Positions 35,146 to 52,582 are shown, counted from the first letter of the stretch. The stretch: DNA of 64,000 bases from Chitinophagaceae bacterium (GCA_965279015.1 OZ257130.1:575723-639722); one strand, 5' to 3'. Made by a program: numbers and translations. Notes: generated by a model from the letters alone, not told the origin.

Positions 35146-35433
35146 ATGAAGAGTCAAAAAAACACTTCCCTTCTTTTTTGCATAATCATGGATCTGATAG
35201 GTTATGCCACCTATGCCGTTCCGGTATTGGGTGAAGTGGGTGATCTTTTTTGGGCGCCGGTTTCCGCAATCATTTTCTTTAATCTATTTGGTGGATGGAA
35301 AGGCGCAGTGGGTGGTATCTTCAACTTTCTAGAAGAGCTGATGCCGGGCCTTGATTTTATTCCTTCGTTTACGATGATGTGGCTATGGAGAAGCTTTAGT
35401 AAGGATCAGACAGTTGTGTTTACCCGGCCATAA
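35146..35433 (+). CDS. Small hypothetical membrane protein
   Basis: 95 aa, hydrophobic, with motifs DLFWAP and EELMPGLDFIPSFT. Confidence 0.7.
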   Translation: MKSQKNTSLLFCIIMDLIGYATYAVPVLGEVGDLFWAPVSAIIFFNLFGGWKGAVGGIFNFLEELMPGLDFIPSFTMMWLWRSFSKDQTVVFTRP

Positions 35434-35460: not shown

Positions 35461-35678
35461 AACCAAGATGCCAAGAAACAAAGAAATAAAACCAAAAATC
35501 AAGAATCAAAGAAAGAATACAAAGAGAGAAAAAATTAAACCCAAAAAAGAATAAAATCAAAACGGGTCTCCGATAATTCGGAGACCCGTTTGTATTTTTT
35601 TGTATTCTTTCTTTGGTACTTGGTTTTCTTTTGCATTTTTTCTTTGGATCTTGGTTCTTCGGTTCTTGGTTCTTTGTA
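35461..35678. repeat. Long imperfect hairpin of CCAAGAA/CAAAGAA 7-mers around a terminator
   Basis: A-rich left arm mirrored by a T-rich right arm (tcttggt/tctttgg units). Confidence 0.7.
35560..35591. terminator. Bidirectional intrinsic terminator
   Basis: aaacgggtctccga-taat-tcggagacccgttt, 14-bp stem between convergent genes. Confidence 0.85.
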
Positions 35679-35681
35679 ACA

Positions 35682-36371
35682 TTAGCTCACCACAAACCTA
35701 TAGCCAATTCCTTTTATAGTAATAATCTCTATCGATTCATCTTCCTTTAAATACCCCCGCAATTTAGTAATATAAACATCCAGGTTCCTGGAATTGAAAA
35801 AGGAATCGTTGCCCCAAAGCAGGTTAAGAATATCTTTTCGATCGATTATCTTATCGCGGTGTTCGTATAATAATTTGAGTAACTCGCTTTCGCGGAACGA
35901 AAGCTTCTTTTCTTCCTTACCATTCATGAGTGTTTGCCGGGTAAGGTGAAATGAAAATCGCCCCAATCTTACCTCATCCGTAGTGCCGGGCTTTCTTCCA
36001 TCCTGTTGGTACCGTAAGGCATTCTCCACCCGAACGATCAATTCTTCCATACTGAAAGGTTTTCGAATATAGTCGTTCCCTCCGGTAGTGAATCCTTTTA
36101 CAAGGTCGGCAGTCTGTGTTTTTGCAGTGAGGAATATAATGGGCACCTTAAAATTAACCGCCCTTATTTCTTCTGCGATCGTAAACCCATCTTTATTAGG
36201 AAGCATAACATCCAATACACAAATATCCGGGTTGACACGCTTGAACACCTGCAATACATTTGCGCCATCGCTTTCCATAACAACATCAAAACTCCGGCTC
36301 TCCAGGCTCTCTTTTACAATTTTGCCCAGGAACAATTCATCTTCAACATATAATATTTTAATCTTACTCAT
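35682..36371 (-). CDS. OmpR/PhoB-family response regulator
   Basis: YVEDE, LDVMLP, FLTAK, KPF; winged-helix C-terminus SRNLDVYITKLR. Confidence 0.95.
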   Translation of the reverse strand: MSKIKILYVEDELFLGKIVKESLESRSFDVVMESDGANVLQVFKRVNPDICVLDVMLPNKDGFTIAEEIRAVNFKVPIIFLTAKTQTADLVKGFTTGGNDYIRKPFSMEELIVRVENALRYQQDGRKPGTTDEVRLGRFSFHLTRQTLMNGKEEKKLSFRESELLKLLYEHRDKIIDRKDILNLLWGNDSFFNSRNLDVYITKLRGYLKEDESIEIITIKGIGYRFVVS

Positions 36372-36372
36372 A

Positions 36373-37944
36373 CTATCCGACCTTTAGTTTTACTTTCCGG
36401 ATGGTTCTATGTTCATCGAAGCGAATAGTGTCCGCTTCTTTATAAGGAATATTTACAATAAAAGTACTTCCTTTCCCCAATTCACTTTTCACTTCAATAA
36501 ATCCCATATGCTGGTGTACAATATGATTCACGTAACTTAATCCAAGACCATATCCTTTTATATTGTGCCGATCACCACCGGGTATGCGGAAAAATTTTTC
36601 GAAGATCTTTCCCTTATATTCTTTAGGAATCCCAATTCCCTTATCGCTAACCTGGAGTGATACATGTTGTTCATGTGTTCGTAGGTAGATATCAATCTCA
36701 GGTTTCTCTTTACTATATTTCAGCGCGTTATCCAGCAGGTTGTAAACAACGCTGGAGATATGCAGTTTATCGGCCTCAATCACGAAATTATTCCCACTGG
36801 TTTCTAACGTAACGGTAGCGTTTTGTTTTTCGAATTGCAGTTTCATAGAGGCCATTACTTCCTGCGTAAGTTGAAGCAGGTCGAAGCTCTCTTTTTGCAG
36901 GGCTATTTCTTTGTTCTCAAACATAGAGAGCTTCAATACTTTATCAACGAGTAATCCAAGCCGGTGAATTTCGGAAGAAGAAATATCGAGGTATTCGCGG
37001 GTGCGTTGTGGATCATTAATGGCATTGAAATTACGTAGCGCTTCGATGGCCACCCCTACGGTAGCGATCGGTGTTTTTAATTCATGGGTGATATTACTTA
37101 CAAATTCATTTTTTAATTGGGCAAGCCGGCGTTGCTGTATGAGGTTACGCAATAATAAAACAAATGAAAAAACGGTGATACCTACCAGAAAAATCGAAAC
37201 CAAAATAGGCAATAGTAGTTTTTTCAACAGGTAGTTTCCGCTGTTTTGCAGATTAAGGGTGAACGTAAGTGGACGGAAAAACCCTACGGTAACTTCATTG
37301 GCTTCTTCCATATCTATCCTAATCAATTCATCCCGGAACCCCACTTCTTTTCGGGTAGTAGAATCATACGTAAACAATTCCTTCCGGCGCTCAACTTCTT
37401 TACGGGTAACAGAAAAAGGAAGATCAATTTTTTCATTTTTAAGCATCCGGGAATATCGATCCGTTATCTCTTTAATGGTTACAGAATCCTGCAATGAATC
37501 TACTCCCTGCAATACCTGAATCCATTCTGCCTGACCGGGGCGTGAAAAAACATGAACCGATTGCCTCATGGAATCAGGAGGGGGAGGCAACGGTTCGGCA
37601 ATCCGCGATTTTGTTAATTCATCATTATTCATTGCAATGACTACCGTTGCGTTTGTTTTCGGCATCGTTCTTACTGTATCAATATCTACCCGTTGGCGGA
37701 TAGCGTTCATCATCCCTACTGCAGTTCTTCCTGCACTCATTCTTATTTTGATATTACTGTCCAATTTCAGTTTTTCAAACTGACACTCGTTCACCACATC
37801 CCGAAACAACACATTCGTACGGATCCGCAGTAATTGTTTTTCTTCCCTATAATTTTTATTCAACCAGTATACCTGGAAACCCAGCACCGCCATAATGGCC
37901 AGCAGCATCAGTGTAACAGGAGTATGAAGTCGGCGTTTGTTCAT
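36373..37944 (-). CDS. Membrane sensor histidine kinase
   Basis: Two TM segments, NITHELKTP, NLLDNALKY, DKGIG, GYGLGL. Confidence 0.95.
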   Translation of the reverse strand: MNKRRLHTPVTLMLLAIMAVLGFQVYWLNKNYREEKQLLRIRTNVLFRDVVNECQFEKLKLDSNIKIRMSAGRTAVGMMNAIRQRVDIDTVRTMPKTNATVVIAMNNDELTKSRIAEPLPPPPDSMRQSVHVFSRPGQAEWIQVLQGVDSLQDSVTIKEITDRYSRMLKNEKIDLPFSVTRKEVERRKELFTYDSTTRKEVGFRDELIRIDMEEANEVTVGFFRPLTFTLNLQNSGNYLLKKLLLPILVSIFLVGITVFSFVLLLRNLIQQRRLAQLKNEFVSNITHELKTPIATVGVAIEALRNFNAINDPQRTREYLDISSSEIHRLGLLVDKVLKLSMFENKEIALQKESFDLLQLTQEVMASMKLQFEKQNATVTLETSGNNFVIEADKLHISSVVYNLLDNALKYSKEKPEIDIYLRTHEQHVSLQVSDKGIGIPKEYKGKIFEKFFRIPGGDRHNIKGYGLGLSYVNHIVHQHMGFIEVKSELGKGSTFIVNIPYKEADTIRFDEHRTIRKVKLKVG

Positions 37945-37987
37945 CTAGTACAAAAGTAACCCAAAGCCAGTAAGGCCTTCGGGGCCG

Positions 37988-38053
37988 TTAACCTTAATTA
38001 ACAATAAATCAAGTTGCATTAACCCGCCCTCAGCAAAGGGTATTCTAGCTTTG
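37988..38053 (+). promoter_or_regulatory. TTAAC direct-repeat operator (38 bp) plus -7 element TAGCTTTG
   Basis: 30/38 identical to the minus-strand motif at 48319-48356, with the same 20-nt gap to a -7-like element. Confidence 0.75.
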
Positions 38054-38070
38054 ATTAAAATATTAAAATT

Positions 38071-38886
38071 ATGATGAAGTCTATTGCTGTTGCCTGTATT
38101 GCTGCATTTATCTGTATATCGGTCAATGCCCAGCAAAACACAGGGAAAGTGATTTATTCAAGAACCGTGCAGATGCAGATCCGGTTTTCCGATAGTGAAG
38201 GTGGGGAGGAAAATGTATTGCCCCGTTCACGTACCGATAAGTTTGAGTTATCCTTTGCCAATAATCAAACATTATGGAAACAAATGGAGCAGGAAGAACA
38301 GGATGGCGATATGGCTTTTAATAATAACGGAGGGGGCGGTATGCAGATAAGAATGATCGGTGCCGGCGCTGATGACGTTATGTTTAGTGATCTGGGCGCT
38401 ACCCGTAGAGTTGAGCTGCGCGAACTGGGCACAAAGAAATATATAGTTGAGGACACGATCCGCCGAATGAACTGGAAACTCAGCGATGAAACAAAAACAA
38501 TTCTTGGAAAGGTTTGCCGCAAAGCCCTATCGGAACGTATCGGTACCCGAATGATGATGAATGTGGAAAACGGTAAAATGGAGCGAAAAGAAATTACCGA
38601 TACCTCCAAAATCGTAGCCTGGTTTACTACCGATATACCCGTGAGTACCGGACCGGCGGAATTCCAGGGTCAGTTGCCTGGTCTTATTCTCGAGATCGAT
38701 ATAAATAATGGTCGCACCGTTTACAAAGCACTGGAAATACAGTCTAAAACCGATGTAGCCGCTATTAAGGAACCCAAGGGGTCCAAGAAACTGACAGTTG
38801 CTGAATTCAATAAAGAACGTGATAAAATGATGGAAGAAATGGGTAGAAATAATGGGGGTTCGGGCAGGACAATTCGAATTAATTGA
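38071..38886 (+). CDS. GLPGLI family protein
   Basis: Signal peptide; AWFTTDIPVSTGPAEFQGQLPGLILE. Confidence 0.92.
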   Translation: MMKSIAVACIAAFICISVNAQQNTGKVIYSRTVQMQIRFSDSEGGEENVLPRSRTDKFELSFANNQTLWKQMEQEEQDGDMAFNNNGGGGMQIRMIGAGADDVMFSDLGATRRVELRELGTKKYIVEDTIRRMNWKLSDETKTILGKVCRKALSERIGTRMMMNVENGKMERKEITDTSKIVAWFTTDIPVSTGPAEFQGQLPGLILEIDINNGRTVYKALEIQSKTDVAAIKEPKGSKKLTVAEFNKERDKMMEEMGRNNGGSGRTIRIN

Positions 38887-38906
38887 TATTAAATAAACCG
38901 ATATCT

Positions 38907-38940
38907 GAAGCCGGCTTTTTACGAAGCCGGCTTCTTTATT
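38907..38940 (+). terminator. Intrinsic terminator
   Basis: gaagccggctt...aagccggcttc stem followed by a T-rich tail. Confidence 0.7.
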
Positions 38941-39195
38941 TCGTCGAAAATTTTTTAAAACTCTTTGGATTCAAGAGGTTGATTTGCAGTATATACACTA
39001 GAAATCGTAGATCTACGATATGCGGAAAACCACAAAAAAGCTTGCATTCATCGAAAATGAGCTATACGTTTGTATAGTTGATCAGCTACAAGGTAGCACT
39101 TAATCCAGTTCCAAAATATCCTTATGTAAATACCATCCGACCTTATCCTGAAAAACCATTCGCATCTCGATTCTTTACCCTTTGAAATTGAATGT

Positions 39196-40434
39196 ATGAA
39201 AACGAATGGTACCCTAATAAACATCTTTAAGAGCATCCTTGCTTGTATTTTGCTCTTTATCTCCAGCGATACAATTGCTCAGCGGCTTAGATTTTCAAAT
39301 CCCGTTCTGGAAAGTGGAGTAGCCGGCACCGTTGGTGCAATCTATCGTTTCCCAAGTGTAAGGCAAAATGTGGATGCCCGCATTACCATTATTGATATTG
39401 TTGGAGGTTTGACGTTGACCAATATTGACCGAACTACAGATGGCTTCCAGGAAGCTTTTCAACCTGAATATACTATCCCTGCTTTAACAAATGGATATAT
39501 TGATTTTACGATCACTTTCGTAGTAGCCGGTAGTACCAGAACGCTAAACCAGGGGATATTAGAAGTATCGGGACTTGATATTGATGGACAGACAAGAAGC
39601 GGATTAAGACTTTTTGAATTTAACCGAATTGATATGGGTGGTGGTACCGTAGATTTTGATATGATGGGTGGAGAAATTATGGTAAGTAACCAGGGCACTT
39701 CTTATACTGCTACCAATATTACCGGTACACTCTTCGGATCTTCTGTAGATACATTAGCCACCCAGGTTATGTTTACGGTTAGTAGAAATGCTGTAGGCTC
39801 CTTTTCTTACCGTGTTGGTGCTAATAACTTAACAAACGGTAATGCTAACCGTTACGCAAGTTTATATTTTTCGCCCTTTGTTTATAATAATTCTTTTTTG
39901 TCTTCTAAATCACTGAAAGATTTTAAAGGAGTAAAAAAGACGAATAGTGTTGAATTGATCTGGAGCCTGATTGCTCAGAATGATATTAAGACAGTAGTAG
40001 TAGAAAAAGCAACTACCCCTAACTCGTTTAAATCAATTGGGGAAACCAATAATAACCAGGTCCATTTTACAGATAATAATTTCTCTAGCACCAGTTACTA
40101 TAGATTGAAACTTGTTTCATTCACCGGAGCTGTACAGTATAGTAATATCATTGTGATCCGTGGTGGAACTGCTGCAACTGACAATAGCTTTAAGGTTTAT
40201 CCCAGTGTGATGAGCAGCACCGCTACTGTTTCTGTAAATGCGGTAAAAGGACAGCAAGCTACGCTTCAATTGGTGGATCTGAACGGTCGTACCATCAGCC
40301 AGCAAAATCTTAACCTGCAACAGGGAAGTAATAATCTTTCGATTAATAAGCCAGCTAATATTACTTCAGGTACTTATTTAGCTGTTATTAAAGTGGATGA
40401 TACCATCCAATCACAAAAAATTATGATCCATTAA
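39196..40434 (+). CDS. T9SS type A sorting domain protein
   Basis: Signal peptide, beta-rich body, C-terminal VYPS...LVDLNGR...GTYLAVI...KIMIH. Confidence 0.85.
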   Translation: MKTNGTLINIFKSILACILLFISSDTIAQRLRFSNPVLESGVAGTVGAIYRFPSVRQNVDARITIIDIVGGLTLTNIDRTTDGFQEAFQPEYTIPALTNGYIDFTITFVVAGSTRTLNQGILEVSGLDIDGQTRSGLRLFEFNRIDMGGGTVDFDMMGGEIMVSNQGTSYTATNITGTLFGSSVDTLATQVMFTVSRNAVGSFSYRVGANNLTNGNANRYASLYFSPFVYNNSFLSSKSLKDFKGVKKTNSVELIWSLIAQNDIKTVVVEKATTPNSFKSIGETNNNQVHFTDNNFSSTSYYRLKLVSFTGAVQYSNIIVIRGGTAATDNSFKVYPSVMSSTATVSVNAVKGQQATLQLVDLNGRTISQQNLNLQQGSNNLSINKPANITSGTYLAVIKVDDTIQSQKIMIH

Positions 40435-40505
40435 TTCATAAACGCTTTCAAAGGTTTCCCAGAGCAATTACCGATTCGTTATTCCCAGACCCTTTCTCAA
40501 AAGCT

Positions 40506-40531
40506 AAACCGCAACGTAAGTTGCGGTTTTT
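40506..40531 (+). terminator. Intrinsic terminator
   Basis: aaaccgcaac-gtaa-gttgcggttttt. Confidence 0.8.
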
Positions 40532-40551
40532 GTTATTTGTAGGTATTCCCG

Positions 40552-40584
40552 AGGGTTCCGAACCTTCGAAAGGTTCGGAACCCT
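40552..40584. repeat. REP-like perfect hairpin
   Basis: agggttccgaacctt-cga-aaggttcggaaccct, 15-bp stem. Confidence 0.75.
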
Positions 40585-40608
40585 GCCAAATCAGTTACCA
40601 AAGCTATT

Positions 40609-42651
40609 TTATCGCTTAAACGGCGTATTTGTTATTGAGAAGAATGGTATATCAATAACTACTGAAAAGGTGAATACGCTCTTTGAGTTTACCACGGTAA
40701 ACTCGGTATCGTTAGAGTAAAATAGCTTTGGAGTCATTCGCCAGCCAGGACCAAATGCAATTGGAGTTTTAGGTATAGCAAAAAAAAGTTGAACACCTGG
40801 GGCAAATATGCTCTCTAATCTAACCTCTTGCTTCAATTCCTCATCATCCCCGTTTTTCAACCTATAGGAGGCAATAGAACCTACATCAATGACTGCAACA
40901 AATAGACTCACTGCGCCACCAAATTTTTTAGATAACCCTTTGCTTACTGATATACCAACGGGCGCATATACACCACTTCCTTCGTTAATATCCCATCCAT
41001 AGCCTATATAGCCGTTTACGGAAACATTGAAGAGAGATTTTTGCTTAATGGAATAGCTGCCTGCTGGTAATGCGGCCGCTTCAATGGCATTCTGAACGTC
41101 TTCAGCCGATTCAGCTTTAATAACAGATGCAAAGAAATTACCGTATTTCAAAATGCCTTCAATCACTTTTGGATCCATCAACTTCTTTTTAGCTACCGAT
41201 AGATTCGCTGCCACAATACTGTCTACAATTTTTTTCCCATTTTTAAGCAAATATTGTTTTAGCGACAAATCAGTACTTTTTGCAATGCTATCGGCAATTT
41301 TTGCATAGACTTTTAATGATGCCAGCTCCTCTGTATTGTCGAATAACTCATCGAGAATGTGAAAGAGGTCAGTCACCGCGTTATTATAATTCTTTGTGAA
41401 AATACTTTTATAGAGATCGTTCGAGTGGCGGGCGATAAGAATGTACTTATTGGCATTCAAACCTGGCTTAATTGTATTGGCAACCTTAAAGCCATAATCA
41501 ATAATACTGATAGCTTTATTGATGTACGTATAATAATCTTCATTGGCAAGAGACCCGTTTGGCAGTTTGCTTCTTAAATCAGTAATGGTACGATCAATGT
41601 CGTTTGCAAGCAAAGCGAAATTTTCTACCAAGGAAGCTACTTGAAGTATTGTTCCTTTTAACATAAGACTGTCAACATACTTCTTTACTGTTATGCTCTC
41701 TAAATTCACTGTGAAGGAAATGGATCCAGCCCGTTGATAAAACAGTCCAAGGAAAATGGTTAGTTCAACCCGACTGTTAACAAGTGAATTCAGTTCATCC
41801 AGTTTTATCCAGATATGATCGGCAGAATTACTCCGCAAGGTTTCGGAAATTATATTCAATAATTTCCAGGAGCTACCAAGATTGGGGTGAATTTCCTCCC
41901 ATTCATTCAATGCCGCCAGATGCTTTATCACTAAAGCAGGATTTATATTGTTGTCGGTAGAAGATTGTGATAATTCACTAACAATTTTTACCGATCGTAT
42001 CGCCAATCGAATTTCCGGAAGCTCTTTTAGAAGCTCCTGATATTTGGGTAAGTCAATTAGTTGATCCAATCCAACTATAAGATTTGACAAGTCTTTTTGG
42101 AAAGCTTCGCGCAAACTTTGTATAAGCTCTGCAAAACGATAGGTGGCAATATTCCCAAAAAATTCCGACGTCGCTGGAAACAGTATTTTGCATTCATCGT
42201 GTGAATCCAGAAATTTCTTTAACCGGTTAAAAAATGCAGCGTTTAATTCCTCTTTCCCTCTTTTAATCAAAAAACGGGCAATTCCATCTGCCAGGTTGGA
42301 AATACTGACTGTTGATGGAAGTGATTTGTTCTTTGACCCACCGCTAACCAAGTCTGCGGTGGCTCCGGCCATGAGTGAATCCAATTGAGCACCAATAAAT
42401 ATATTATCCAGGTAAAACGCAAAGATTTGACCCGTCGTTAGAGTATCATCTCGAAATGGTTCCGGTAGATATTCTTTTAGAATAGCAGCTAGTTTCTTAA
42501 TACTTTGCGTATCTTTTTTAAATGAAAATTTTGAGCCTTGTACTTCTATCAGCTCCCGAGTAATATCCTTCGTATCATAATATGCCAATTGAGAATATCC
42601 CGCATTTGCGATAAATAATATTGCAAGAATGGATAAGCAAAAATTTTTCAT
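40609..42651 (-). CDS. Uncharacterised secreted protein (helical body, beta-strand C-terminus)
   Basis: Signal peptide; ATGA overlap with the upstream S8 gene; amphipathic strands after AALPAGSYSIK. Confidence 0.8.
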   Translation of the reverse strand: MKNFCLSILAILFIANAGYSQLAYYDTKDITRELIEVQGSKFSFKKDTQSIKKLAAILKEYLPEPFRDDTLTTGQIFAFYLDNIFIGAQLDSLMAGATADLVSGGSKNKSLPSTVSISNLADGIARFLIKRGKEELNAAFFNRLKKFLDSHDECKILFPATSEFFGNIATYRFAELIQSLREAFQKDLSNLIVGLDQLIDLPKYQELLKELPEIRLAIRSVKIVSELSQSSTDNNINPALVIKHLAALNEWEEIHPNLGSSWKLLNIISETLRSNSADHIWIKLDELNSLVNSRVELTIFLGLFYQRAGSISFTVNLESITVKKYVDSLMLKGTILQVASLVENFALLANDIDRTITDLRSKLPNGSLANEDYYTYINKAISIIDYGFKVANTIKPGLNANKYILIARHSNDLYKSIFTKNYNNAVTDLFHILDELFDNTEELASLKVYAKIADSIAKSTDLSLKQYLLKNGKKIVDSIVAANLSVAKKKLMDPKVIEGILKYGNFFASVIKAESAEDVQNAIEAAALPAGSYSIKQKSLFNVSVNGYIGYGWDINEGSGVYAPVGISVSKGLSKKFGGAVSLFVAVIDVGSIASYRLKNGDDEELKQEVRLESIFAPGVQLFFAIPKTPIAFGPGWRMTPKLFYSNDTEFTVVNSKSVFTFSVVIDIPFFSITNTPFKR

Positions 42652-43778
42652 GGTATTTTAATTTTTGAAATTGCATTATTAATATTTATCAATCCGTATC
42701 CCTGTTTAATATCGAAGCCAGTGTCTGTACCGGTATCGTCGCAACTATTGATCAGAACATCAACACAATCAACAGTCAACTGATGTTTTTTAGCATAAGA
42801 AAGCATCAAAGCCAAACAACCAACCGTGAACGCTGTTGCAATGCTGGTTCCATTTTCAGCTTTTGTCGTTTGACCTATGTTTGTAGTTAACACAGATTTC
42901 CCAGGAGCAAGACATCTTAAATGATTACTCCAATTTGAGAAAGAAACTAAGTTGCCGGATTCATCGAATGCGCCTATAGACAAAAGCCCATTCTTCGCTG
43001 GAAAAGCTGGACTGTAGCATGAAGGAAAAGTATTGCGGTCTGGTGTATTTACACTTGCAGGGTTATGATTGTTGCCAATTGCGCTCACTATAATTTTCCC
43101 TGCACTAACCGCATCTTGAATAGCAGCTTTGAATAATGGATTATCAAGAGTGAAAGAATAGCTGATCGATATAATATCAACTTCTGGCAAAGAAGCTGCG
43201 AAATTAACCGCCCTTGTAAAGCCATCAAAATTTGTTTCACTTTGCTGTGGCGTTGCCCGGAGTATTAAAAGTTTCACATCAGGTGATACTCCAAATACCT
43301 TATCGGTTCCATTGGCACCAATGATGCCAGCCATTCTTGTTCCATGACCATTAATATCTTTTATTTCATTATCACCTAAAAAACTCCTCGAGGAGGGGTG
43401 AATATTTGAAAAGTCATTTCCAGGTTCTATTCCTGTATCTATTAATGCTACAGTAACTCCTTCACCCTTTGTTGAGAGCTCCTGCCATATAAAAGGTATA
43501 TCGAAACGCTTATGTCCCCAACTCATTTTTTCCGGAATGAAATGCGCCGTATCCAATCTCCGTCCGACCAGGGCACCCTGACTTACCCCCCCACTCCAAT
43601 AATAATTATCCGCTTCATCCCTCAGCCATATATCTATATCCCGGAACAAATCTCCTTTATACAATTTACCATCCACTTCAATTTCACTCCCTGGCGCAAT
43701 AAACTGGAAGCAGGGGGCATTCACACTTGGTTTACCCACGCGTACATTCAGGAATTTATCTTTGACTGTTACTTTCAT
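42648..43778 (-). CDS. S8 subtilisin-like serine protease with N-terminal SH3-like domain, no signal peptide
   Basis: Catalytic triad LIDTG / HGT / NGTSIA; N-terminal LNVRVGKPS...W...NYYWSGG. Confidence 0.9.
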   Translation of the reverse strand: MKVTVKDKFLNVRVGKPSVNAPCFQFIAPGSEIEVDGKLYKGDLFRDIDIWLRDEADNYYWSGGVSQGALVGRRLDTAHFIPEKMSWGHKRFDIPFIWQELSTKGEGVTVALIDTGIEPGNDFSNIHPSSRSFLGDNEIKDINGHGTRMAGIIGANGTDKVFGVSPDVKLLILRATPQQSETNFDGFTRAVNFAASLPEVDIISISYSFTLDNPLFKAAIQDAVSAGKIIVSAIGNNHNPASVNTPDRNTFPSCYSPAFPAKNGLLSIGAFDESGNLVSFSNWSNHLRCLAPGKSVLTTNIGQTTKAENGTSIATAFTVGCLALMLSYAKKHQLTVDCVDVLINSCDDTGTDTGFDIKQGYGLININNAISKIKIP

Positions 43779-44983
43779 TATCCTACTCTTTCAATTTTTT
43801 TGACCGTAACTGTTTTCCCTTTGGCTTCATCGGGATTTACAGAACTCCTCAGTTTTATCAATTTATTCAGCAGGTCAAACCAGAAAGGAGCACCAAAGGA
43901 AATAGCTAATGCTGTTAGTATCAGGCCAGGTATATTTGCCATCTTAGGCGTTCCGCCAAGCCCAAGCAAATCATTAACGCTCTTAATTTCTTTATCCATC
44001 ATATCGGTCGCTTGCTTATATAATGAATCAGCCATTTTCTTAGCTTCCGCATACTGGTTCTGCGTTTGGACCAGCGCTTCTTTCTTTTTGGCGGTATCTG
44101 GATTGTTTGTTTTTGTACTTAGCCGGTCAATCTCGGCTCTTGTTTCTTCCAGGTCTTTTACTAAGGTTGGATGAGCCTTAGTATAAGCATCCGCCTGCAT
44201 TACCAGTTGTTCTCTCAACTTAGGATCCCGATGAAGTTTTTTTATAATCGCAAGCGTATCTACATTGAAAAGGCCAGCGATGACCAACCCCAATCCAAGT
44301 GCAATGAGTTTGGTATACTTACGGTACCAGCCCGATGACCGATCCATCATTTCGTCAAACCACTTTTCAATATGCTCCTTGAACCTTTCCACATCGCCTT
44401 GTGCATCCACCCACATGGAATTCAGATACTCCCGGGTTTCACTGTTGAAGGATACCTGATTGTCCCAGGGAAGTGCTGCATTTTCTTTAAGGCTGTTTTC
44501 AATCTCTGTGCGATGACTCTCTCCCGGCTTTACGTTTTTCCCGCGTAATAAATCGATCATCACTTTTGCAAACGTGTCCCGGGATATATAGGAAGGTTTA
44601 GTAACGAGAACATTTGAATTCGAGAGAAATTTTATAAGCGGATGCTTATAAAATACGCTACTTACTTTGTAATTGGGTTGTTGATTTGCTGGGCCTGTTG
44701 CACCGTTTGCATCCTGAGGCACAATAAGTTTTTTCTTTGTCTTATCGGATTTAAATCCATCTGCGATGGTATAAAAGAACCCAAACAGGATATGTTTGAT
44801 TCTACCTTTCCTGGAAAGCCGGATATTATCATCCAGCATCCGGCGTAATGCCAGAAACAGTACCGCTGCCCGAAGCCCAATAAGAACAGCAATGAGTTCC
44901 TGAAGCAGGGTTGCTAATAAACTATATAGTAAATAAATAAAAACCAAACCAATTACTATATCAAGCACAATATTGTTAAACAT
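43778..44983 (-). CDS. Conserved uncharacterised membrane protein (LDxxIGL...HPLI...WFDxxMxR...GAPFWFD)
   Basis: N- and C-terminal TM segments; TAATG overlap with the S8 gene. Start reassigned to 44983 (MFNNIVLD). Confidence 0.8.
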   Translation of the reverse strand: MFNNIVLDIVIGLVFIYLLYSLLATLLQELIAVLIGLRAAVLFLALRRMLDDNIRLSRKGRIKHILFGFFYTIADGFKSDKTKKKLIVPQDANGATGPANQQPNYKVSSVFYKHPLIKFLSNSNVLVTKPSYISRDTFAKVMIDLLRGKNVKPGESHRTEIENSLKENAALPWDNQVSFNSETREYLNSMWVDAQGDVERFKEHIEKWFDEMMDRSSGWYRKYTKLIALGLGLVIAGLFNVDTLAIIKKLHRDPKLREQLVMQADAYTKAHPTLVKDLEETRAEIDRLSTKTNNPDTAKKKEALVQTQNQYAEAKKMADSLYKQATDMMDKEIKSVNDLLGLGGTPKMANIPGLILTALAISFGAPFWFDLLNKLIKLRSSVNPDEAKGKTVTVKKIERVG

Positions 44984-45285
44984 ATAGATAGATTTAGTAT
45001 TACTTTTCTCACCATTCTTCAACCGTACAACAAAACGCTTTTCAATGTTATAGTAATTCATGAGTTACCCTGAATTGGGTAGGGGAAACTCAAACACTAT
45101 TCAGTTTAGGGTAAATAGTAAAAAAGAATAAAAACAACTTTGTAAAGATGGGTAACCGCCTAATTTAATTAAGCAGTTTATTTACGGGATTTTCAACCGT
45201 TATTTCACGGGGTAGTGATTTAGACGTAAAAAAAAGGTGTATAGAAAACATATTAGCTTACTTAAATATAATCCAAAAATAAAAC

Positions 45286-45319
45286 TTCACCCATACTACT
45301 ATGTGGTAGTATGGGTGAA
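45286..45319. terminator. Perfect 14-bp hairpin (terminator or REP-like)
   Basis: ttcacccatactac-tatgtg-gtagtatgggtgaa, downstream of the barrel gene. Confidence 0.65.
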
Positions 45320-45446
45320 ATGAAGTGTAATAACAGGAATTCAGACTAGCTGGTAGCTAAATAAAGGTAACCATCTAACATTCTAATTATCGATGATTAA
45401 ACCTTTATCCGGAGCGATATTAATTTTAAAGGAGTAATTTTCTTGT

Positions 45447-48266
45447 TTAGCGCATTATCATCCTTGCCCCACCTGCGCTTCCCTGCCCCAACCCATTCTT
45501 ATTCAAACTATAGGTGAAACTCAGCAGGAAGAAGCGCTGCAGGTTGCGCTGGCGGATATCCTCAACGTAGTTTTGGTTGCTGTTACGACTAACCCCCACG
45601 TTCTTGTTCAGCATATCATAGGCTTTTAATTTCAGTTCTCCTCGATTGAACCGAAGGAATTGTTTACTGATACTGGCATTCCAGAAGGGAACTTTTGCAT
45701 TAAAACCATCAGACAACTGGTTATTGATAGTATAAACAAATTCGGTAGCGAAGAAAAAGTTCTTCGGTAATTGCCAGTCGAAGTCCGTAGTGTAATGCTG
45801 CGATAAATATTCAACATCACGGGCAGAAGAAAGCGTATAATTCGTTTTGTTGTAATTTATCCCACCGCCAACGGATAAATTCGCTTTTTCTCCTAAACGC
45901 AGGTCTAACCGGATATCCGGACCGGTACTGAACGTATTACTTGTATTTTCCTCCCCGTTTACAATTTGCTTATTACGGAAATAACCTGCGTTATTACTGA
46001 TATTGATTGTTCCCTTAATAGAAGTTATGGGAAATCCGAAACTGATATCTCCGTTCAGATTATAAACCCCGTTTACATTAACCGGGTGAGTGGTTTTAAT
46101 ATTGCCGAAATACACATCGTCGTTTACGATCTTATTATCCGTTTTAATCAGGTTGAGGAACATAAAAAGATTCCTGTTCTTGAAAGGGTTGATGCTGGTG
46201 AATTGCATTCGCATGATATGACTGAATTCCTGATCGAGACCCGGATTACCGATTTTTATATTAAGCGGATCGCTGTTGTCGGGTACAGGTTGCAATTGCG
46301 AAGGTGAAGGTTGATTGGTATTGGTAGCATAATTGACTACCAGACTACGATATCGTGTAAAATTATATTGCAGTCGCGCATTTGGCAACAGGTTATTGTA
46401 TTTTTTGTAGATAACGGAGTCTTTGATTCCGGAAATAATTTTCCCTTCCAGTTCTGCTTGTTGCCAGCTTACTCCCAGCGAATAATTATATTTCTTTTTT
46501 TGCGTACGGAGTCGCAGACCTGCCTGCAAATATCCATAGGTATTTTCATAGTCGTTGGTCAGTAAATTATTTAAATCATCGTATTTGCCGTTCTGCTTGT
46601 TATAGTCAAAGGTTTGTTTTTCCGCGATGCTGCGGGTATTGCTTTTACTGGTGCTAAGTTCTATCAGCGATCGTTTGAAAATCGGTTCGGTATAAGCTAT
46701 TCGTGCCGTATAGCCATTCAGGTCTCCATTGGTGTAATAGCGTTGATTGATAGAATCGGTACGCTGGAGAGCACCATTCAAATGATTATAAAATTTATTG
46801 ATCGACTCCAGGCTTCCTTCTCCATCGGTACTATTGATGCTATTCTGCAAACTAAGAGAGAAGGTGCGACCCTTGCGTCTGAATTTTTTCCGGAACAACA
46901 GATCATTCCTGAAATTAAACCCTCTATTGTTTCCCAAATTACGACTTACCCCTTCAACACTTTGCTGTTGGAGATCCGAAAAGTTTCCATAGTCCGAATA
47001 AGAACTGGTTTTTGCATCCTGATAGCCAAAAGAAGGAGTTATTTTGAGCGAATGAAATGAATCGATAATAATATCCGCGTTCAGGTTGAGCCGATGGCTA
47101 CCCGTAATATTATCTGTATAAGAATTCTGTTTGGAAAAATAAGTGGAGTCGGGTAAAAAGTATTGCCGCTGAGAATGAGATTCGGTTTGAGGATTATAAC
47201 GGCTGTAAAAATAATTGCTCTGGAAATCGGTTTTCTTCCCAATGATATTATTATAGTTGATTCCGCCCGCCTGTGTTGAAGTAATACCATTGTTGTTTCC
47301 CCCCATTCCACCCATAGCGGAAGCATCATTGCCACTCACTGTAATATTTATATTTCCTCCGCTGCCGCCCTGGCGAAGCCGATTGAGTTCGCCACTGAAA
47401 TTAAGCATGTCAAAAAAGGAGAATCCCTCCGCGTTGTCGTTATTGGCCATACCGATAGCGGAGAACTGGCGGGCTCCTTTAAACGAATTTACATTGAAGC
47501 GCCCTTCGTACCGATCTTCGGTACCGCCACCAGCCATTGCTTTACCAAACAATCCTTTCTTTTTGTCTTTTTTTAATTTGAGGTTGATGGTTTTTTCACT
47601 GTTCCCATCATCAAAACCGGTCAATTGTGCCTGGTCGCTCTGGCGGTCATAAACCTGCACTTTATCCACTGCATCAGCAGGCAGGTTACGGGTAGCAATC
47701 TTCGGATCATTGCCAAAAAACTCCTTTCCATCTACCAATACTTTATTTACCTTCTCGCCCTGCGCTTTTACTGTTCCGTCCTTTTCCACTTTAACACCCG
47801 GCAACTTTTTCAACAAATCCTCTACACTGGCATTGGGTTGTACTTTAAAGGAACCCGCATTATATTGAATGGTATCCGCGATCATGGTTACCGGTGGAGC
47901 TTCGGCCGTTACTACTACTTCAGCTAATACTTTGGCGGCATCATGAAAAACAAGGTTACCGAGATCAACTTCCTTCTTATTATCTGTAATGCTGAAATAT
48001 TTATTGCTGTTGTGGTAATTCACATGGGTGATAAGAAGCCGGTAATCACCGTTAGCAAGCCCGCGCATTTCAAATCGACCGTTATTATCCGTCATGGAAA
48101 ATGATACCAGGGAAGAGTCTTTACGTTGCAGGATGGTGAGCGTGGCCCCTCCTACCGGTTGTTTAGCCAGCGTATCCAGCAACAGGCCTTTTATAGAACC
48201 ATTCTTTTGGGCCGATGCGCCCAGGGAAATAATAACCAATAAGAGCAATGAGTAAAAATATTTCAT
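45447..48266 (-). CDS. Outer-membrane beta-barrel protein with N-terminal carboxypeptidase-regulatory-like domain (TBDR-like)
   Basis: Signal peptide, EDLLKKLPGV, LVDGKEFFG, C-terminal FLLSFTYSL. Confidence 0.88.
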   Translation of the reverse strand: MKYFYSLLLLVIISLGASAQKNGSIKGLLLDTLAKQPVGGATLTILQRKDSSLVSFSMTDNNGRFEMRGLANGDYRLLITHVNYHNSNKYFSITDNKKEVDLGNLVFHDAAKVLAEVVVTAEAPPVTMIADTIQYNAGSFKVQPNASVEDLLKKLPGVKVEKDGTVKAQGEKVNKVLVDGKEFFGNDPKIATRNLPADAVDKVQVYDRQSDQAQLTGFDDGNSEKTINLKLKKDKKKGLFGKAMAGGGTEDRYEGRFNVNSFKGARQFSAIGMANNDNAEGFSFFDMLNFSGELNRLRQGGSGGNINITVSGNDASAMGGMGGNNNGITSTQAGGINYNNIIGKKTDFQSNYFYSRYNPQTESHSQRQYFLPDSTYFSKQNSYTDNITGSHRLNLNADIIIDSFHSLKITPSFGYQDAKTSSYSDYGNFSDLQQQSVEGVSRNLGNNRGFNFRNDLLFRKKFRRKGRTFSLSLQNSINSTDGEGSLESINKFYNHLNGALQRTDSINQRYYTNGDLNGYTARIAYTEPIFKRSLIELSTSKSNTRSIAEKQTFDYNKQNGKYDDLNNLLTNDYENTYGYLQAGLRLRTQKKKYNYSLGVSWQQAELEGKIISGIKDSVIYKKYNNLLPNARLQYNFTRYRSLVVNYATNTNQPSPSQLQPVPDNSDPLNIKIGNPGLDQEFSHIMRMQFTSINPFKNRNLFMFLNLIKTDNKIVNDDVYFGNIKTTHPVNVNGVYNLNGDISFGFPITSIKGTINISNNAGYFRNKQIVNGEENTSNTFSTGPDIRLDLRLGEKANLSVGGGINYNKTNYTLSSARDVEYLSQHYTTDFDWQLPKNFFFATEFVYTINNQLSDGFNAKVPFWNASISKQFLRFNRGELKLKAYDMLNKNVGVSRNSNQNYVEDIRQRNLQRFFLLSFTYSLNKNGLGQGSAGGARMIMR

Positions 48267-48290
48267 GACAGTCTATTTTCCTTTCGAGTA

Positions 48291-48356
48291 CGAAAATATT
48301 CTGACTGTCATTAAAAATGGGTTAAGCAGGCTTGCTTTAATGTTAATAAAGGTTAA
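48291..48356 (-). promoter_or_regulatory. Second copy of the TTAAC-repeat operator plus -7-like TATTTTCG
   Basis: TTAACCTTTATTAACATTAAAGCAAGCCTGCTTAACCC; see 37988. Confidence 0.75.
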
Positions 48357-48532: not shown

Positions 48533-49075
48533 TCAATTCACCACAAGACCATCAACGTCCTTCTCATGTACACACAGTACGATTTTCCAACCGCTGGAGG
48601 CCTGTTTTAGACTTAGTTCTACTTTCAGTTTTTGTAATCCACCGTTAGCGGGCAGCAACTGAAAAGCTATGGTGGTACTCTTCTTATCTTCTGAGGGATA
48701 CTCGTATTTACCATTCAAAATTACCGGCGACATTCCTTCAATCTTCACAATAGTATTCTTGATATTGTCGAATACTTCCTTAAAGCGTTCCCTGGATTGA
48801 TCGAAACTACCGGATTCGAATAATTCCGATTTCCAGCTATACAATTCATTGTGCTGGGTAATTACACTTGGCATGGCGCCGGGCACTTCTATTTTGGAGC
48901 GATAATCAGTTTCCTGTTGGTTCACGCCTATTTTATCTCCTATAATGTTGCGGAACTTATTAGGATAATCTTCAATTACCTTCTGCAAGGCAGTGTTGGT
49001 CTTGTTGCTGAATACTCCCTGTGCCTCAGTAGCAAGGGAAGTCAACATCAACAGGATCAAAGAGGTGATTTTCAT
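48533..49075 (-). CDS. Hypothetical secreted protein
   Basis: Signal peptide from the reassigned start MKITSLILL (49075). Confidence 0.75.
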   Translation of the reverse strand: MKITSLILLMLTSLATEAQGVFSNKTNTALQKVIEDYPNKFRNIIGDKIGVNQQETDYRSKIEVPGAMPSVITQHNELYSWKSELFESGSFDQSRERFKEVFDNIKNTIVKIEGMSPVILNGKYEYPSEDKKSTTIAFQLLPANGGLQKLKVELSLKQASSGWKIVLCVHEKDVDGLVVN

Positions 49076-49474
49076 ACGGGGCGGATTTGCAATAAAACTA
49101 TAAAAACAGGGGGGTACCTGCAATAGGAAATATACTTCTGGCTTTTACACACAATAAAAGGGGTCGTTCGTCGTTACAAAGGGTAGCATTTTCGGAAAAA
49201 CCCAAAAACCAATATTCAATGCAAAAGAACTCAATGTATTACGATACGCACCGCACTAAGATGTGCAAAGACATTTACAGGCCCTCCTCTAATATTGTGC
49301 GTTTTTTCAAGAGCCTTATGTCAGTTTTAATTGTGGGTCATTCGCCTATCAGCGATACCTCTTATGCACGACGCAAACCTCATTAAAAAATAATTTTTAC
49401 TTACGTAACGTAAAGCACTTACCTCTGAAACCACAATTGTATGTGCTGGCCCTGCTGTAAAAGGCAGGGCTTTT

Positions 49475-49572: not shown

Positions 49573-52494
49573 TTAATTTCTCTGCATTGACCTTTCTACC
49601 CTTCTCTCCATACCTGCGGGCATCTGCATTCCGCGTTGTTGCGGTTGTTGTCCTTTGCTAAGGTTGAAAGTAAAGGTGAGCATGAAATATCTTTTTAATA
49701 CCATAGAGTTAACGTCTTCGATATAATTATCTCCAACAGTACGGCGGATCGATTGATTCTGGTTCAACAGGTCATTCACTGAAAACTTGAGTTCGCCATT
49801 TCTCTTTTTGAACATCTGATGAGCAATGCTTGCATTCCATAAAGGAATTGTTTGGTTAAACCCTTCACCCAATCCGGTCATGATATTATAATCGAAATCA
49901 GTTGATACTACTAAATGCTTTATAGCAAGCAAAGTGAAATCCAATGAATAAGTCTGTGACCAATATACTAAATCTGGATCGGTACTACCTGTCTGTAACG
50001 AATAATCAACGTTGTTATAAGTAAGGCTTGCATTCAATCCAAAATTTACTTTTTGTTTGAAATCAAGGTTTACACCAACGGTTTGTGTAACCGCAATTGT
50101 CTTGGTGGTGTTTTTCTGGAAGTCAGTACCAAAATTGTAATCCTGGTCAATTAAGCTCGCATCTTTATTATAACGGATATTATTCGTTAAGTTAAAAATA
50201 CTTCCTTTCATTTTGCGAAGCGGCAACCCTACGTTTAGGTTTGAAAACAGTCCCATTATACCATCCATATTAACGGGCTTGATATACTGAACCGGACCAT
50301 TGGTTTCAATACTGTTTACGATTTTATTATAAGTATTGTTGAAGTTCAGGTTCGCATTAAAGAATTTAAATGAAGCCATGTTAAATGAACTATAGTTCAG
50401 GTTCATACTATTCGTAAATTCCTGAGCCAATCCTGGATTACCGGTTACAATTTGCAGCGGGTTGGTTAAATCCGGTACTGGCTGTAACTGTGAAGCTGTT
50501 GGCTGGTTCGTACGGCCGTTATACCGAAAACGAAGGTTTTTTCCTTGTTTGAAAGTATAGTTAAAAGAAGCTGTCGGGAAGAAATTAAAATAGTTCCCGG
50601 TAGTGGTAGTGTCTTTCCCTGTTAATGCGCGTTTGGTGCGACTTTCCAATTCAGATTGCTCTACTGCACCTCCGATTTGCCAGTTATACACTTTTGTTTG
50701 CACCCGGAAGTTAATGCCTATACGATGTGCAAAAAAATCATTCTCGAAATAGTTGGTTTGTGCCAGATTGATCTGATCATAATTCCCCGTAGAACTGTCA
50801 TATTCGTATACTACACGGTCCGAAGTGTTTCTATTATTTGCATAACGATAGTTTATTTCTATCAGCTTGTTCGGACCTACAGGTTCAGTATAGGAGGCTG
50901 TAACCGCATTGTTGTTAGACTTTGTTTCAAGAGACGAAACGAGGTCCTGGTTACGAACATATGTAATCGAACCATCCTTATTGTAAAAAGTGAGGGGTGT
51001 AAGGTTTGTACCGTCACCATCACTATGGTTAATATTGTTATTCAACCCAATAGTTAGTGTACGACCTATCTTGCCGAATTTATGGCGATACAATGCCTCG
51101 TTCCTTACACTAAACCCCTTCCGCTCATTATCATTGCGGCTGCTACCCGCTACTGATTTATAAGATTGAGATGGGGTACTTGAAATCGTTGCGTTGGAAT
51201 CAAAGCTATGTGTTTCGGAATGTTGCGCGGTAAAATTAGAAGTAATCAGGATTGAGTTCATCGAATCGATCTCATACTGAAAACGCAAATTTACCCGGTG
51301 ATTATTATTAATATTCTTTGAAGCACTCTCTGAAGTTAGTTGAGCGACAGAGTCGCCATAAAAGGTTTCACGTACACTACTGCGCCTGATTTGGTTCTCT
51401 GTATTAGAGAAGAAATAACTTCCCTGGAGTTCGACCTTAGATCCAAACTTATTGGTATAGTTAATACCAGCGTTTGAAGCACGGTTGATACCAGTACCGC
51501 CGCTACCACCACCGCCAACAGACATCGTGCGGGTTTGGCCACCACCTCCTGCTCCGCCACCACCAAAGCCGGCGCCTCCACCAATACCTCCACCACCTCT
51601 TGTTCCAAATCCTCCCATTGAACTAACGATATCATTGAATGAGAAAGTTGACTTATTAATATTATTTGATCCAGCTAATATTGACCAACGCTGATCACCG
51701 TTAAACTTATTGAAGCTTAACTGGCTTTCATAACGTTCATCGGTTCCATAACCGCCCATGAATCGCCCGAAGTAACCATTCCGCTTATCTTTTTTCAATT
51801 TGATATTGATGGTTTTCGCCCGGCTGCCATCGTCCATTTTCGTAAACTTAGCCTGGTCGCTCATATCGTCGAATACCTGTATGGATTCAATCATATCAGC
51901 CGTAATGTTTTTGGTAGCCATCTTGGGATCGGTACCAAAAAACTCTTTTCCATCTACATATACTTTCTGAACATTTTCTCCCTGTGCCGTTACATTACCA
52001 TCTTTATCAACCTGAACGCCGGGTAATTTTTTCAATACATCCTCCGCGTTGGCATTGGGTTTTACTTTAAAGGCATCAGCTTTAAACTCAACCGTATCTT
52101 TCTTAATAAGGATGGGAGGACCCTGCACCACCACTTCTTCCAGCGTGGTTCCTTTGCGGTCCATATAAATGGTATTCAGGTTAACTGTAGGGAAATCCTT
52201 GGAAATCATGAAGTTCTTGCTCCAGTTATCAAAGCCCTGGAAACTTACTACCACCTTATACATCCCTGCCGGCAGGTCTTTTATTTCAAATTCGCCTTTA
52301 TCGTTTGCAACGGTATAGGTTACTACTGATGAATCTTTGGGATTCATAACCGTAATAGTAGCTTTGGCCAACGACTCCTTTTTAACGGAATCCGCCAGTT
52401 TCCCTTTAATACCACCAATAATCTTGTCCTGGGCCATAGTACCCGAAACAAATCCTAACATCAAGAGACTCAGCAAGAAGTAGATCTTTCTCAT
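49573..52494 (-). CDS. Outer-membrane beta-barrel protein, paralog of 45447..48266
   Basis: EDVLKKLPGV, YVDGKEFFG, Gly-rich linker, YFMLTFTFNL. Start reassigned to 52494 (MRKIYF). Confidence 0.88.
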   Translation of the reverse strand: MRKIYFLLSLLMLGFVSGTMAQDKIIGGIKGKLADSVKKESLAKATITVMNPKDSSVVTYTVANDKGEFEIKDLPAGMYKVVVSFQGFDNWSKNFMISKDFPTVNLNTIYMDRKGTTLEEVVVQGPPILIKKDTVEFKADAFKVKPNANAEDVLKKLPGVQVDKDGNVTAQGENVQKVYVDGKEFFGTDPKMATKNITADMIESIQVFDDMSDQAKFTKMDDGSRAKTINIKLKKDKRNGYFGRFMGGYGTDERYESQLSFNKFNGDQRWSILAGSNNINKSTFSFNDIVSSMGGFGTRGGGGIGGGAGFGGGGAGGGGQTRTMSVGGGGSGGTGINRASNAGINYTNKFGSKVELQGSYFFSNTENQIRRSSVRETFYGDSVAQLTSESASKNINNNHRVNLRFQYEIDSMNSILITSNFTAQHSETHSFDSNATISSTPSQSYKSVAGSSRNDNERKGFSVRNEALYRHKFGKIGRTLTIGLNNNINHSDGDGTNLTPLTFYNKDGSITYVRNQDLVSSLETKSNNNAVTASYTEPVGPNKLIEINYRYANNRNTSDRVVYEYDSSTGNYDQINLAQTNYFENDFFAHRIGINFRVQTKVYNWQIGGAVEQSELESRTKRALTGKDTTTTGNYFNFFPTASFNYTFKQGKNLRFRYNGRTNQPTASQLQPVPDLTNPLQIVTGNPGLAQEFTNSMNLNYSSFNMASFKFFNANLNFNNTYNKIVNSIETNGPVQYIKPVNMDGIMGLFSNLNVGLPLRKMKGSIFNLTNNIRYNKDASLIDQDYNFGTDFQKNTTKTIAVTQTVGVNLDFKQKVNFGLNASLTYNNVDYSLQTGSTDPDLVYWSQTYSLDFTLLAIKHLVVSTDFDYNIMTGLGEGFNQTIPLWNASIAHQMFKKRNGELKFSVNDLLNQNQSIRRTVGDNYIEDVNSMVLKRYFMLTFTFNLSKGQQPQQRGMQMPAGMERRVERSMQRN

Positions 52495-52582
52495 ATATAT
52501 TATACTAGGGGTGAAAACTACCGGATTGGACGATGCCAAGGGGGAAAACTTGTACAGGCGGTGAAATTAATTTGGGGGAGGG

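Follow-up and report, generated by a model that had tools for sequence, protein, structure and literature searches.

The window analysed here is a 64,000-nucleotide stretch of the genome of a Chitinophagaceae bacterium (GCA_965279015.1 OZ257130.1:575723-639722), and all coordinates are counted from its first letter unless a contig is named. It holds two copies of a 38-bp element, a candidate operator. One copy lies between an operon for a sensor histidine kinase (HK) and a response regulator (RR) and the divergently transcribed gene for a GLPGLI-family protein, and the other lies, on the opposite strand, 5' of a distant gene for a TonB-receptor-like outer-membrane barrel. The features that concern the element are as follows.

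37988-38025, + strand: element copy 1 (GLPGLI-type candidate operator), TTAACCTTAATTAACAATAAATCAAGTTGCATTAACCC, kept in 35 GLPGLI-type sites
37988-37992, 37998-38002, 38009-38013 and 38019-38023, + strand: half-sites of copy 1, reading TTAAC, TTAAC, a degenerate TCAAG and TTAAC
48356-48319, − strand: element copy 2 (barrel-type candidate operator), TTAACCTTTATTAACATTAAAGCAAGCCTGCTTAACCC, kept 5' of the barrel orthologue in 35/35 genomes examined
38046-38053, + strand: −7 box of the GLPGLI promoter, TAGCTTTG, of the Bacteroidota TAnnTTTG type, 20 nt past copy 1
48298-48291, − strand: variant −7 box of the barrel promoter, TATTTTCG, 20 nt past copy 2
37951-37958, − strand: inverted −7 box, putatively of the HK-RR operon, TACTTTTG, 29 nt from copy 1 and 6 nt 5' of the HK ATG
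35682-36371, − strand: OmpR/PhoB-family RR (RprY-like), Pfam Response_reg and Trans_reg_C, the presumed operator-binding protein
36373-37944, − strand: sensor HK, Pfam HisKA and HATPase_c, with two transmembrane segments
38071-38886, + strand: GLPGLI protein (TIGR01200/PF09697) with a signal peptide, monocistronic under copy 1
45447-48266, − strand: outer-membrane barrel of 939 amino acids with CarboxypepD_reg, a weak Plug-like region and OMP_b-brl_3, monocistronic under copy 2

The initial annotation had drawn attention to the two 38-mers, and both are present as it described: they are identical at 30/38 positions, each has TTAAC at offsets 0, 10 and 31, and a −7-like element (TAGCTTTG and TATTTTCG, respectively) begins exactly 20 nt past each copy. 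From base composition, about 0.05 pairs at least this similar are expected in the window, a figure that by itself leaves something to chance. With three or fewer mismatches, the first 21 nt of the element match only the two copies, where shuffles predict 0.10. A genome-wide motif scan, over 5.53 Mb, found the full site at the two predicted promoters only. Nothing besides the two copies comes within 11 mismatches of either, the remaining genome matches have 12 mismatches and in none of them is the TTAAC layout present, and the pattern TTAAC-N5-TTAAC-N14-18-TTAAC matches the two copies alone. The exclusivity of the 21-mer and of the pattern, together with the empty range up to 11 mismatches, makes a chance resemblance unlikely. 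What we consider the strongest evidence against chance is the conservation of the element among relatives.

Conservation of the element among relatives

We scanned 60 relatives for the 21-mer with at most one mismatch and found it in 10/12 same-genus genomes and in one other genus, usually as two copies about 5 kb from each other, one on each strand. When the loci were mapped by tblastn, one copy was always flanked by the HK-RR operon on one side and the GLPGLI gene on the other, and the second copy was always 5' of the barrel orthologue. In most relatives the GLPGLI and barrel genes are convergent neighbours; the window has an extra ~5 kb between them. A full-length HK orthologue occurs in exactly the 11 genus genomes that carry the motif (the window's own included), and two genomes have neither, a co-variation that agrees with the regulon predicted by the initial annotation. 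Those two (G006 and G010) lack the motif together with full-length HK, GLPGLI and barrel orthologues and retain paralogues only: the module, operators included, is gained or lost as a unit.

The 15-bp first box of the element (box 1) is found in the genus almost only at the two promoters, with a single match for the reversed control in 13 genomes. One further box-1 match in the window's own genome, TTAACCTTAATTAACTTGCTTTAAC at C1:3071831-3071845 (− strand), was rejected as a third regulon member: it has no TTAAC at offset 31 and no −7 box at +58, it is not conserved in the genus, and it is probably a chance occurrence, though it may bind weakly. This sequence, with three TTAAC in 10-bp phase, lies 5' of a gene for a BlaI/MecI-like repressor and is followed by that gene's own palindrome, ATTACGAAATTTGTCGTAAT. 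Extra box-1 matches in two other genus genomes (G002 and G011) lie in unrelated contexts.

Across the family, a strict pattern (TTAAC-N5-TTAAC-N15-17-TTAAC) was searched for in 251 Chitinophagaceae genomes from 151 genera and was present in 125 of them, representing 83 genera. Most matches come as a single pair, one on each strand, with 4-10 kb between them; the reversed-control pattern gave mostly single matches, in about 40 genomes by hand count. Among named species, an orthologue of the HK occurs in Niastella and Paraflavitalea, for example. Loci from 20 further genera all (20/20) have one site in the divergent region between HK-RR and GLPGLI and the other 5' of the barrel gene. Five more genera have the same layout, and in two of these the barrel gene is unlinked yet keeps its operator copy. 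In 35 genomes from about 25 genera a site adjoins the HK-RR orthologue at every locus examined, and the placement of copy 1 in the divergent HK/RR promoter region, already noted in the initial annotation, holds in all 35.

Aligning the 35 GLPGLI-type and 35 barrel-type sites gave 70 instances, in which information is close to zero in the flanks and high within the 38-bp block, while, across the genomes compared, identity is just 62-86% for the RR and 40-70% for the HK. Positions that the search pattern left free are conserved as well: C5 (0.86), T6 (0.99), T7 (0.97), A9 (0.91), T16-A18 (0.84-0.93), C22 and A23 (0.76), A24 (0.97) and C36 (0.79). The spacing of the helically phased half-sites is invariant in all 70 instances, bearing out the phased direct repeats of the initial annotation, and CAA(G) is conserved at positions 22-25. 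The consensus half-sites are TTAACCTTnA, TTAAC(a/c)TTAA, nCAAG and TTAACC. We divide the element into four half-sites, with offsets of 0, 10, 21 and 31, arranged in two tandem boxes, as would be expected for two OmpR/PhoB-type dimers. Further features of such an operator are found here: the direct repeats have a period of about 10-11 bp, or one helical turn, a cognate Trans_reg_C regulator is encoded nearby and is co-inherited, and the element keeps a fixed position relative to the core promoter, where it overlaps or replaces the upstream promoter element.

Other families of the class have the motif only once, again with 22 nt to the −7 box, in front of a GLPGLI-barrel operon that diverges from HK-RR; at one such locus the order is barrel-GLPGLI-HK-RR. 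Because one copy drives a GLPGLI-barrel operon there, the two copies in the window are best interpreted as duplicates of one operator-promoter that remained when that operon was split or inverted, a polarity that we infer from the comparison. The two copies of one genome are no more alike (identity 0.54) than copies from different genomes (0.53), and each copy type keeps its own signatures, so that there is no sign of gene conversion or recent duplication. At one locus (L034, G009:C16) the barrel-type operator, along with the sequence 3' of it, is present two times in inverted orientation, 240 bp apart, at 11695 (−) and 11936 (+), right at a contig end, which is probably an assembly fold-back artefact. 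The degenerate half-site at offset 21, the inverted −7 box of the HK-RR operon and the split-operon origin are additions to the initial annotation.

Promoters, transcription units and known systems

The GLPGLI −7 box ends 17 nt before the ATG at 38071. Its barrel counterpart, with one mismatch to TAnnTTTG, ends 24 nt before the ATG at 48266. Both boxes are conserved in relatives, as for the −7 element of a Bacteroidota primary-sigma promoter. Among the aligned sites, barrel promoters have TAnnTT(T/C)(G/A) at offset +58 in 35/35 cases, and GLPGLI promoters have the −7 box at +58 in 22/35 and at +48, one helical turn closer, in 11/35. Accordingly, the last TTAAC and the −7 box are separated by 22 nt in 57/70 sites and by 12 nt in 11/70. 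No −33 TTTG is conserved about 19-21 nt 5' of the −7 box in the aligned sites, where TTAACC or variable sequence is found instead. Since a recognisable −33 TTTG is absent, the promoters look activator-dependent, or are at least consistent with such dependence. Both operator copies lie upstream of their −7 boxes and are thus not expected to be transcribed.

On the other side of copy 1, a CAAAnnTA sequence occurs 27-30 nt 5' of the motif in 32/35 GLPGLI-type sites compared with 0/35 barrel-type sites. An inverted −7 box at a fixed distance from the GLPGLI-side operator suggests that the HK-RR operon is probably autoregulated through copy 1. The N-terminus of the HK is conserved from residue 1 in relatives, with TACTTTTG just 6 nt ahead of the ATG (37942-37958, −), and the HK-RR mRNA may have little or no leader.

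Strong intrinsic terminators stand after the GLPGLI, barrel and RR genes and so delimit three separate transcription units.

38907-38934, + strand: intrinsic terminator after GLPGLI, a 12-bp stem followed by a T run
45321-45284, − strand: intrinsic terminator after the barrel gene, a 16-bp stem followed by a T run
35591-35560, bidirectional: terminator after the RR gene, a perfect 14-bp stem between it and a convergent gene for a 95-residue protein

The last of these overlaps weak Rfam miRNA-like matches at 35479-35676. The convergent gene (35146-35433, +) encodes a protein that probably has two transmembrane segments and matches no family. It adjoins the RR gene in many genera (58-77% identity), is divergent from the barrel-type operator at one locus (L063), and its product may belong to the module as well. 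Between the convergent GLPGLI and barrel genes, the interval 39196-45061 encodes a protein with a type IX secretion tail, a 680-residue protein, an S8 protease and a 427-residue protein, and its length varies from 0.2 to 6 kb among relatives. Upstream of copy 2 lie genes for a third barrel paralogue of 988 residues (49573-52539, −; 37% identical) and, following it, for a secreted protein of 196 residues with no known family (48533-49123, −); this pair is always found just 5' of copy 2 in the genus and in several other genera. The 196-residue protein was considered as a hidden GLPGLI homologue and rejected (BLASTP E 1.5).

The layout of the element is familiar from Escherichia coli, where the PhoB pho box, the OmpR F and C boxes and the ArcA box likewise consist of direct-repeat half-sites in tandem that recur every 10-11 bp and are bound by winged-helix dimers in head-to-tail orientation. 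In operators of this family several boxes are contiguous, and the proximal box replaces or overlaps the −35 region. The ArcA half-site (TGTTAA) has TTAAC in its reverse complement. The E. coli operators differ from ours in half-site sequence and in the 10/11/10 spacing, their promoters are of the sigma-70 −10/−35 type rather than the Bacteroidota −7 type (TAnnTTTG), and, unlike the PhoB, OmpR and ArcA regulons, that of the window would be limited to two envelope genes and the two-component system itself.

Among Bacteroidota regulators, the best NCBIfam match of the window RR is RprY (NF051850; 241.2 bits, E 9e-72, with the next family at E 8e-46). The Pfam match to Trans_reg_C, a winged-helix domain, agrees with the initial annotation of the regulator as OmpR-type. 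The score falls short of the 370-bit equivalog cut-off for RprY, so that the protein is a paralogue of RprY and not RprY itself, and a closer RprY candidate, 44% identical in the DNA-binding domain, is encoded elsewhere in the genome. RprY of Bacteroides fragilis and Porphyromonas gingivalis, also of the OmpR type, regulates itself and has targets related to envelope and stress, and no binding motif was reported for it (PMC3646045); nor is one reported in the HaeR literature that we examined. The recognition-helix region of the window RR (WGnDsFFNSRNLDVYItklR) is almost wholly invariant at the 95% level or above among 37 orthologues, apart from a few positions conserved at 70-95%, and differs in the RR paralogues of the same genome.

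We regard PhoP/PhoR of Riemerella anatipestifer as the closest experimental precedent. Using DNA affinity purification followed by sequencing (DAP-seq), electrophoretic mobility shift assays and RNA-seq, the OmpR-family PhoP was found to be a global regulator with 583 DAP-seq peaks and targets that are both up- and down-regulated (PMC9603813). The core of its motif, TTTAACA, was described as ArcA-like; PhoP binds its own promoter and autoregulates, has DAP-seq sites 5' of several differentially expressed GLPGLI genes, and was shown by mobility shift to bind at an outer-membrane beta-barrel gene and at a TonB-dependent receptor gene (PMC9603813). Like the window RR it is a Bacteroidota OmpR-type regulator with a TTAAC-containing motif and GLPGLI and barrel genes among its likely targets; unlike it, PhoP acts globally, whereas the window module has two sites per genome in a rigid four-half-site layout.

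The loci L083-L087, from another class of the phylum, have four TTAACA-type half-sites in 10-bp phase between an HK-RR homologue and a small gene of no assigned function, and their RR homologue is 40-44% identical to that of the window. At L083, the one locus where the next gene was scanned, a gene for a NapC/NirT-type multihaem cytochrome follows, recalling the cytochrome targets of R. anatipestifer PhoP. These Flavobacteriia-like sites differ from ours in having a multihaem cytochrome gene nearby and no GLPGLI-barrel pair, and they suggest a wider clade of Bacteroidota regulators with TTAAC half-sites in common.

A model of regulation and the GLPGLI-barrel pair

We conclude that the 38-bp element is very probably the operator of the adjacent RprY-like RR (35682-36371), to which that RR is predicted to bind. 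Its four half-sites, on one face of the helix, would form two tandem boxes, each for a head-to-tail RR dimer. The periplasm-sensing kinase (36373-37944) would phosphorylate the RR, and the phosphorylated RR would bind both operator copies and recruit RNA polymerase, switching on two monocistronic genes, those for the GLPGLI protein and the TonB-receptor-like barrel. The promoter-proximal half-site, which ends 22 nt before the −7 box, would occupy the usual −33 position. Copy 1 would also serve to autoregulate HK-RR through the inverted −7 box 29 nt away. In the kinase, H287, the N box and the G box are invariant in orthologues. The periplasmic region of about 210 residues between its transmembrane segments matches no known family, and an AlphaFold2 (AF2) model has a predicted local distance difference test (pLDDT) score below 50 over residues 61-142 and 186-214, with no fold assignable.

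We think activation the rather likelier direction of control. The alternative, which we hold to be possible if somewhat doubtful, is that the element is indeed the operator of the RR and that the RR represses, its binding over the −33 region or the spacer occluding RNA polymerase until a signal relieves it. In 11/35 GLPGLI promoters the proximal TTAAC is just 12 nt from the −7 box and thus inside the core promoter, as such occlusion would have it. The same distance fits PhoB, whose pho box classically sits some 10 bp 5' of the −10 element, and a shift in spacing of exactly one helical turn is typical of face-dependent activation. The lack of a recognisable −33 TTTG in every promoter also speaks for activator dependence and against repression. 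Expression in the R. anatipestifer phoP mutant points both ways, since some GLPGLI and barrel genes rise and other GLPGLI genes fall (PMC9603813).

Several points weigh against parts of the activation model. The four-site description is an interpretation, given that the third half-site, at offset 21, is degenerate (nCAAG). The direction of regulation is read from just two things, the position of the operator and the missing −33 element, and the promoters with 12-nt spacing, where the proximal TTAAC lies at about −29 to −25, could also fit repression. R. anatipestifer PhoP, with its 583 peaks, may not be orthologous to the window RR, and the function of RprY is not transferable to a protein that scores below the equivalog cut-off. 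Lastly, binding of the RR to the motif is deduced from sequence comparison, which leaves some room for another protein at the site.

We think it improbable, however, that the protein bound at the motif is some other transcription factor, with its gene elsewhere in the genome, and that the site adjoins HK-RR only by accident. Half-sites of the TTAAC type are common to related Bacteroidota regulators, and four TTAACA stand before an HK-RR homologue in another family, as this idea would allow. Against it, the motif adjoins the HK-RR orthologue with fixed geometry at every locus examined, across about 25 genera, and is lost along with HK-RR in G006 and G010; and with only two sites per genome a global regulator is unlikely.

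A further set of explanations would have the two copies resemble each other by chance, as a neutral leftover of a duplicated promoter, or as terminal inverted repeats that bound a mobile segment (37988-48356). These are most improbable and already contradicted by the conservation data: the copies are inverted around a 10-kb segment and the content between GLPGLI and barrel varies among relatives, but the block is conserved and its flanks randomised despite the divergence of RR and HK, the copies persist where the two genes are on different contigs (G015 and G019), their identity within a genome does not exceed that between genomes, no transposase is associated, and Rfam finds nothing at either site. 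Mobile-element inverted repeats were therefore rejected. An RNA element was likewise rejected, both copies preceding their −7 boxes and a search of Rfam at E ≤ 1 over 30000-55000 having returned nothing at either site and weak miRNA-like hairpin noise elsewhere. The same applies to an extracytoplasmic function (ECF)-type promoter (AAC ... CGT), for which the sole CGT is at the wrong distance and in copy 2 only.

The functional pairing of GLPGLI with the barrel, which the initial annotation had proposed from the common element, is supported by three lines of comparative evidence, namely their conserved convergent synteny, the single-operon form in other families and a paralogous operon. The genome has only two GLPGLI genes, and the second lies 18 nt 3' of a gene for a paralogous barrel of 930 amino acids (C1:3784311-3787862). 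This pair, in which the barrel is 32% and the GLPGLI protein 27% identical to the window copies, is adjacent in every relative checked, and neither an adjacent two-component system nor a TTAAC operator was found at it. The window GLPGLI protein is a clear member of its family (TIGR01200, 137.5 bits against a cut-off of 50; Pfam Porph_ging, 64.4 bits). The barrel scores 124 bits for OMP_b-brl_3 and 27.1 bits for PF00593 (cut-off 27), its Plug match is below threshold (E 0.03; 15.3 bits against 23.9), and it has no sequence match in the PDB.

In Bacteroidota, SusC/SusD-type or TonB-dependent transporters and their accessory proteins run as pairs under dedicated sensors, the logic of polysaccharide utilisation loci. 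The window pair is similar in combining a large CarboxypepD_reg outer-membrane barrel with a small secreted partner, next to an envelope-sensing regulator. It differs in that the partner is a beta-rich GLPGLI protein with a type I signal peptide and not a SusD lipoprotein, in that the Plug of the barrel is only weakly detectable, and in that the regulator is a classical HK-RR pair rather than a hybrid two-component system or an ECF/anti-sigma pair.

To our knowledge, no function is known for GLPGLI proteins (TIGR01200/PF09697), a large Bacteroidota-specific family. The AF2 model of the window protein (pLDDT 76) has a beta-rich fold. Its top PDB match is the N-domain of PNGase F-II (E 3e-7, TM-score 0.46), followed by ependymin-related proteins (E ~1e-3), whose fold we take to be LolA-like, and by the much weaker LolA-LolB (E 0.025) and LolB (E 0.04). 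The resemblance gives a weak hint of hydrophobic-ligand binding. A speculative and rather unlikely extension is that GLPGLI proteins are hydrophobic-ligand carriers of ependymin/LolA-like fold with a dedicated TonB-receptor-like barrel, and that the HK-RR/TTAAC module is an envelope pathway, induced by a periplasmic signal, through which a lipid-like or otherwise hydrophobic compound crosses the outer membrane. If true, this would provide the first function and the first regulatory input for this large family.

The locus is of a known type, an OmpR-family operator with a small regulon; its value is in supplying the GLPGLI family with a partner, a regulator and a testable system. It also illustrates clearly how an operon is split and its operator-promoter duplicated, and how the spacing of an activator site shifts by exactly one turn of the helix. 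With the operator consensus, the regulon can be annotated in roughly half of the Chitinophagaceae genomes and also in neighbouring families. At just two targets per genome, the operator offers a clean genetic system in which one regulator should switch two genes. Most likely, HK-RR, GLPGLI and the barrel are one switchable unit across Chitinophagaceae and related families, and the GLPGLI family thereby gains three handles: an obligate barrel partner of about 940 amino acids, a dedicated two-component system and a defined operator.

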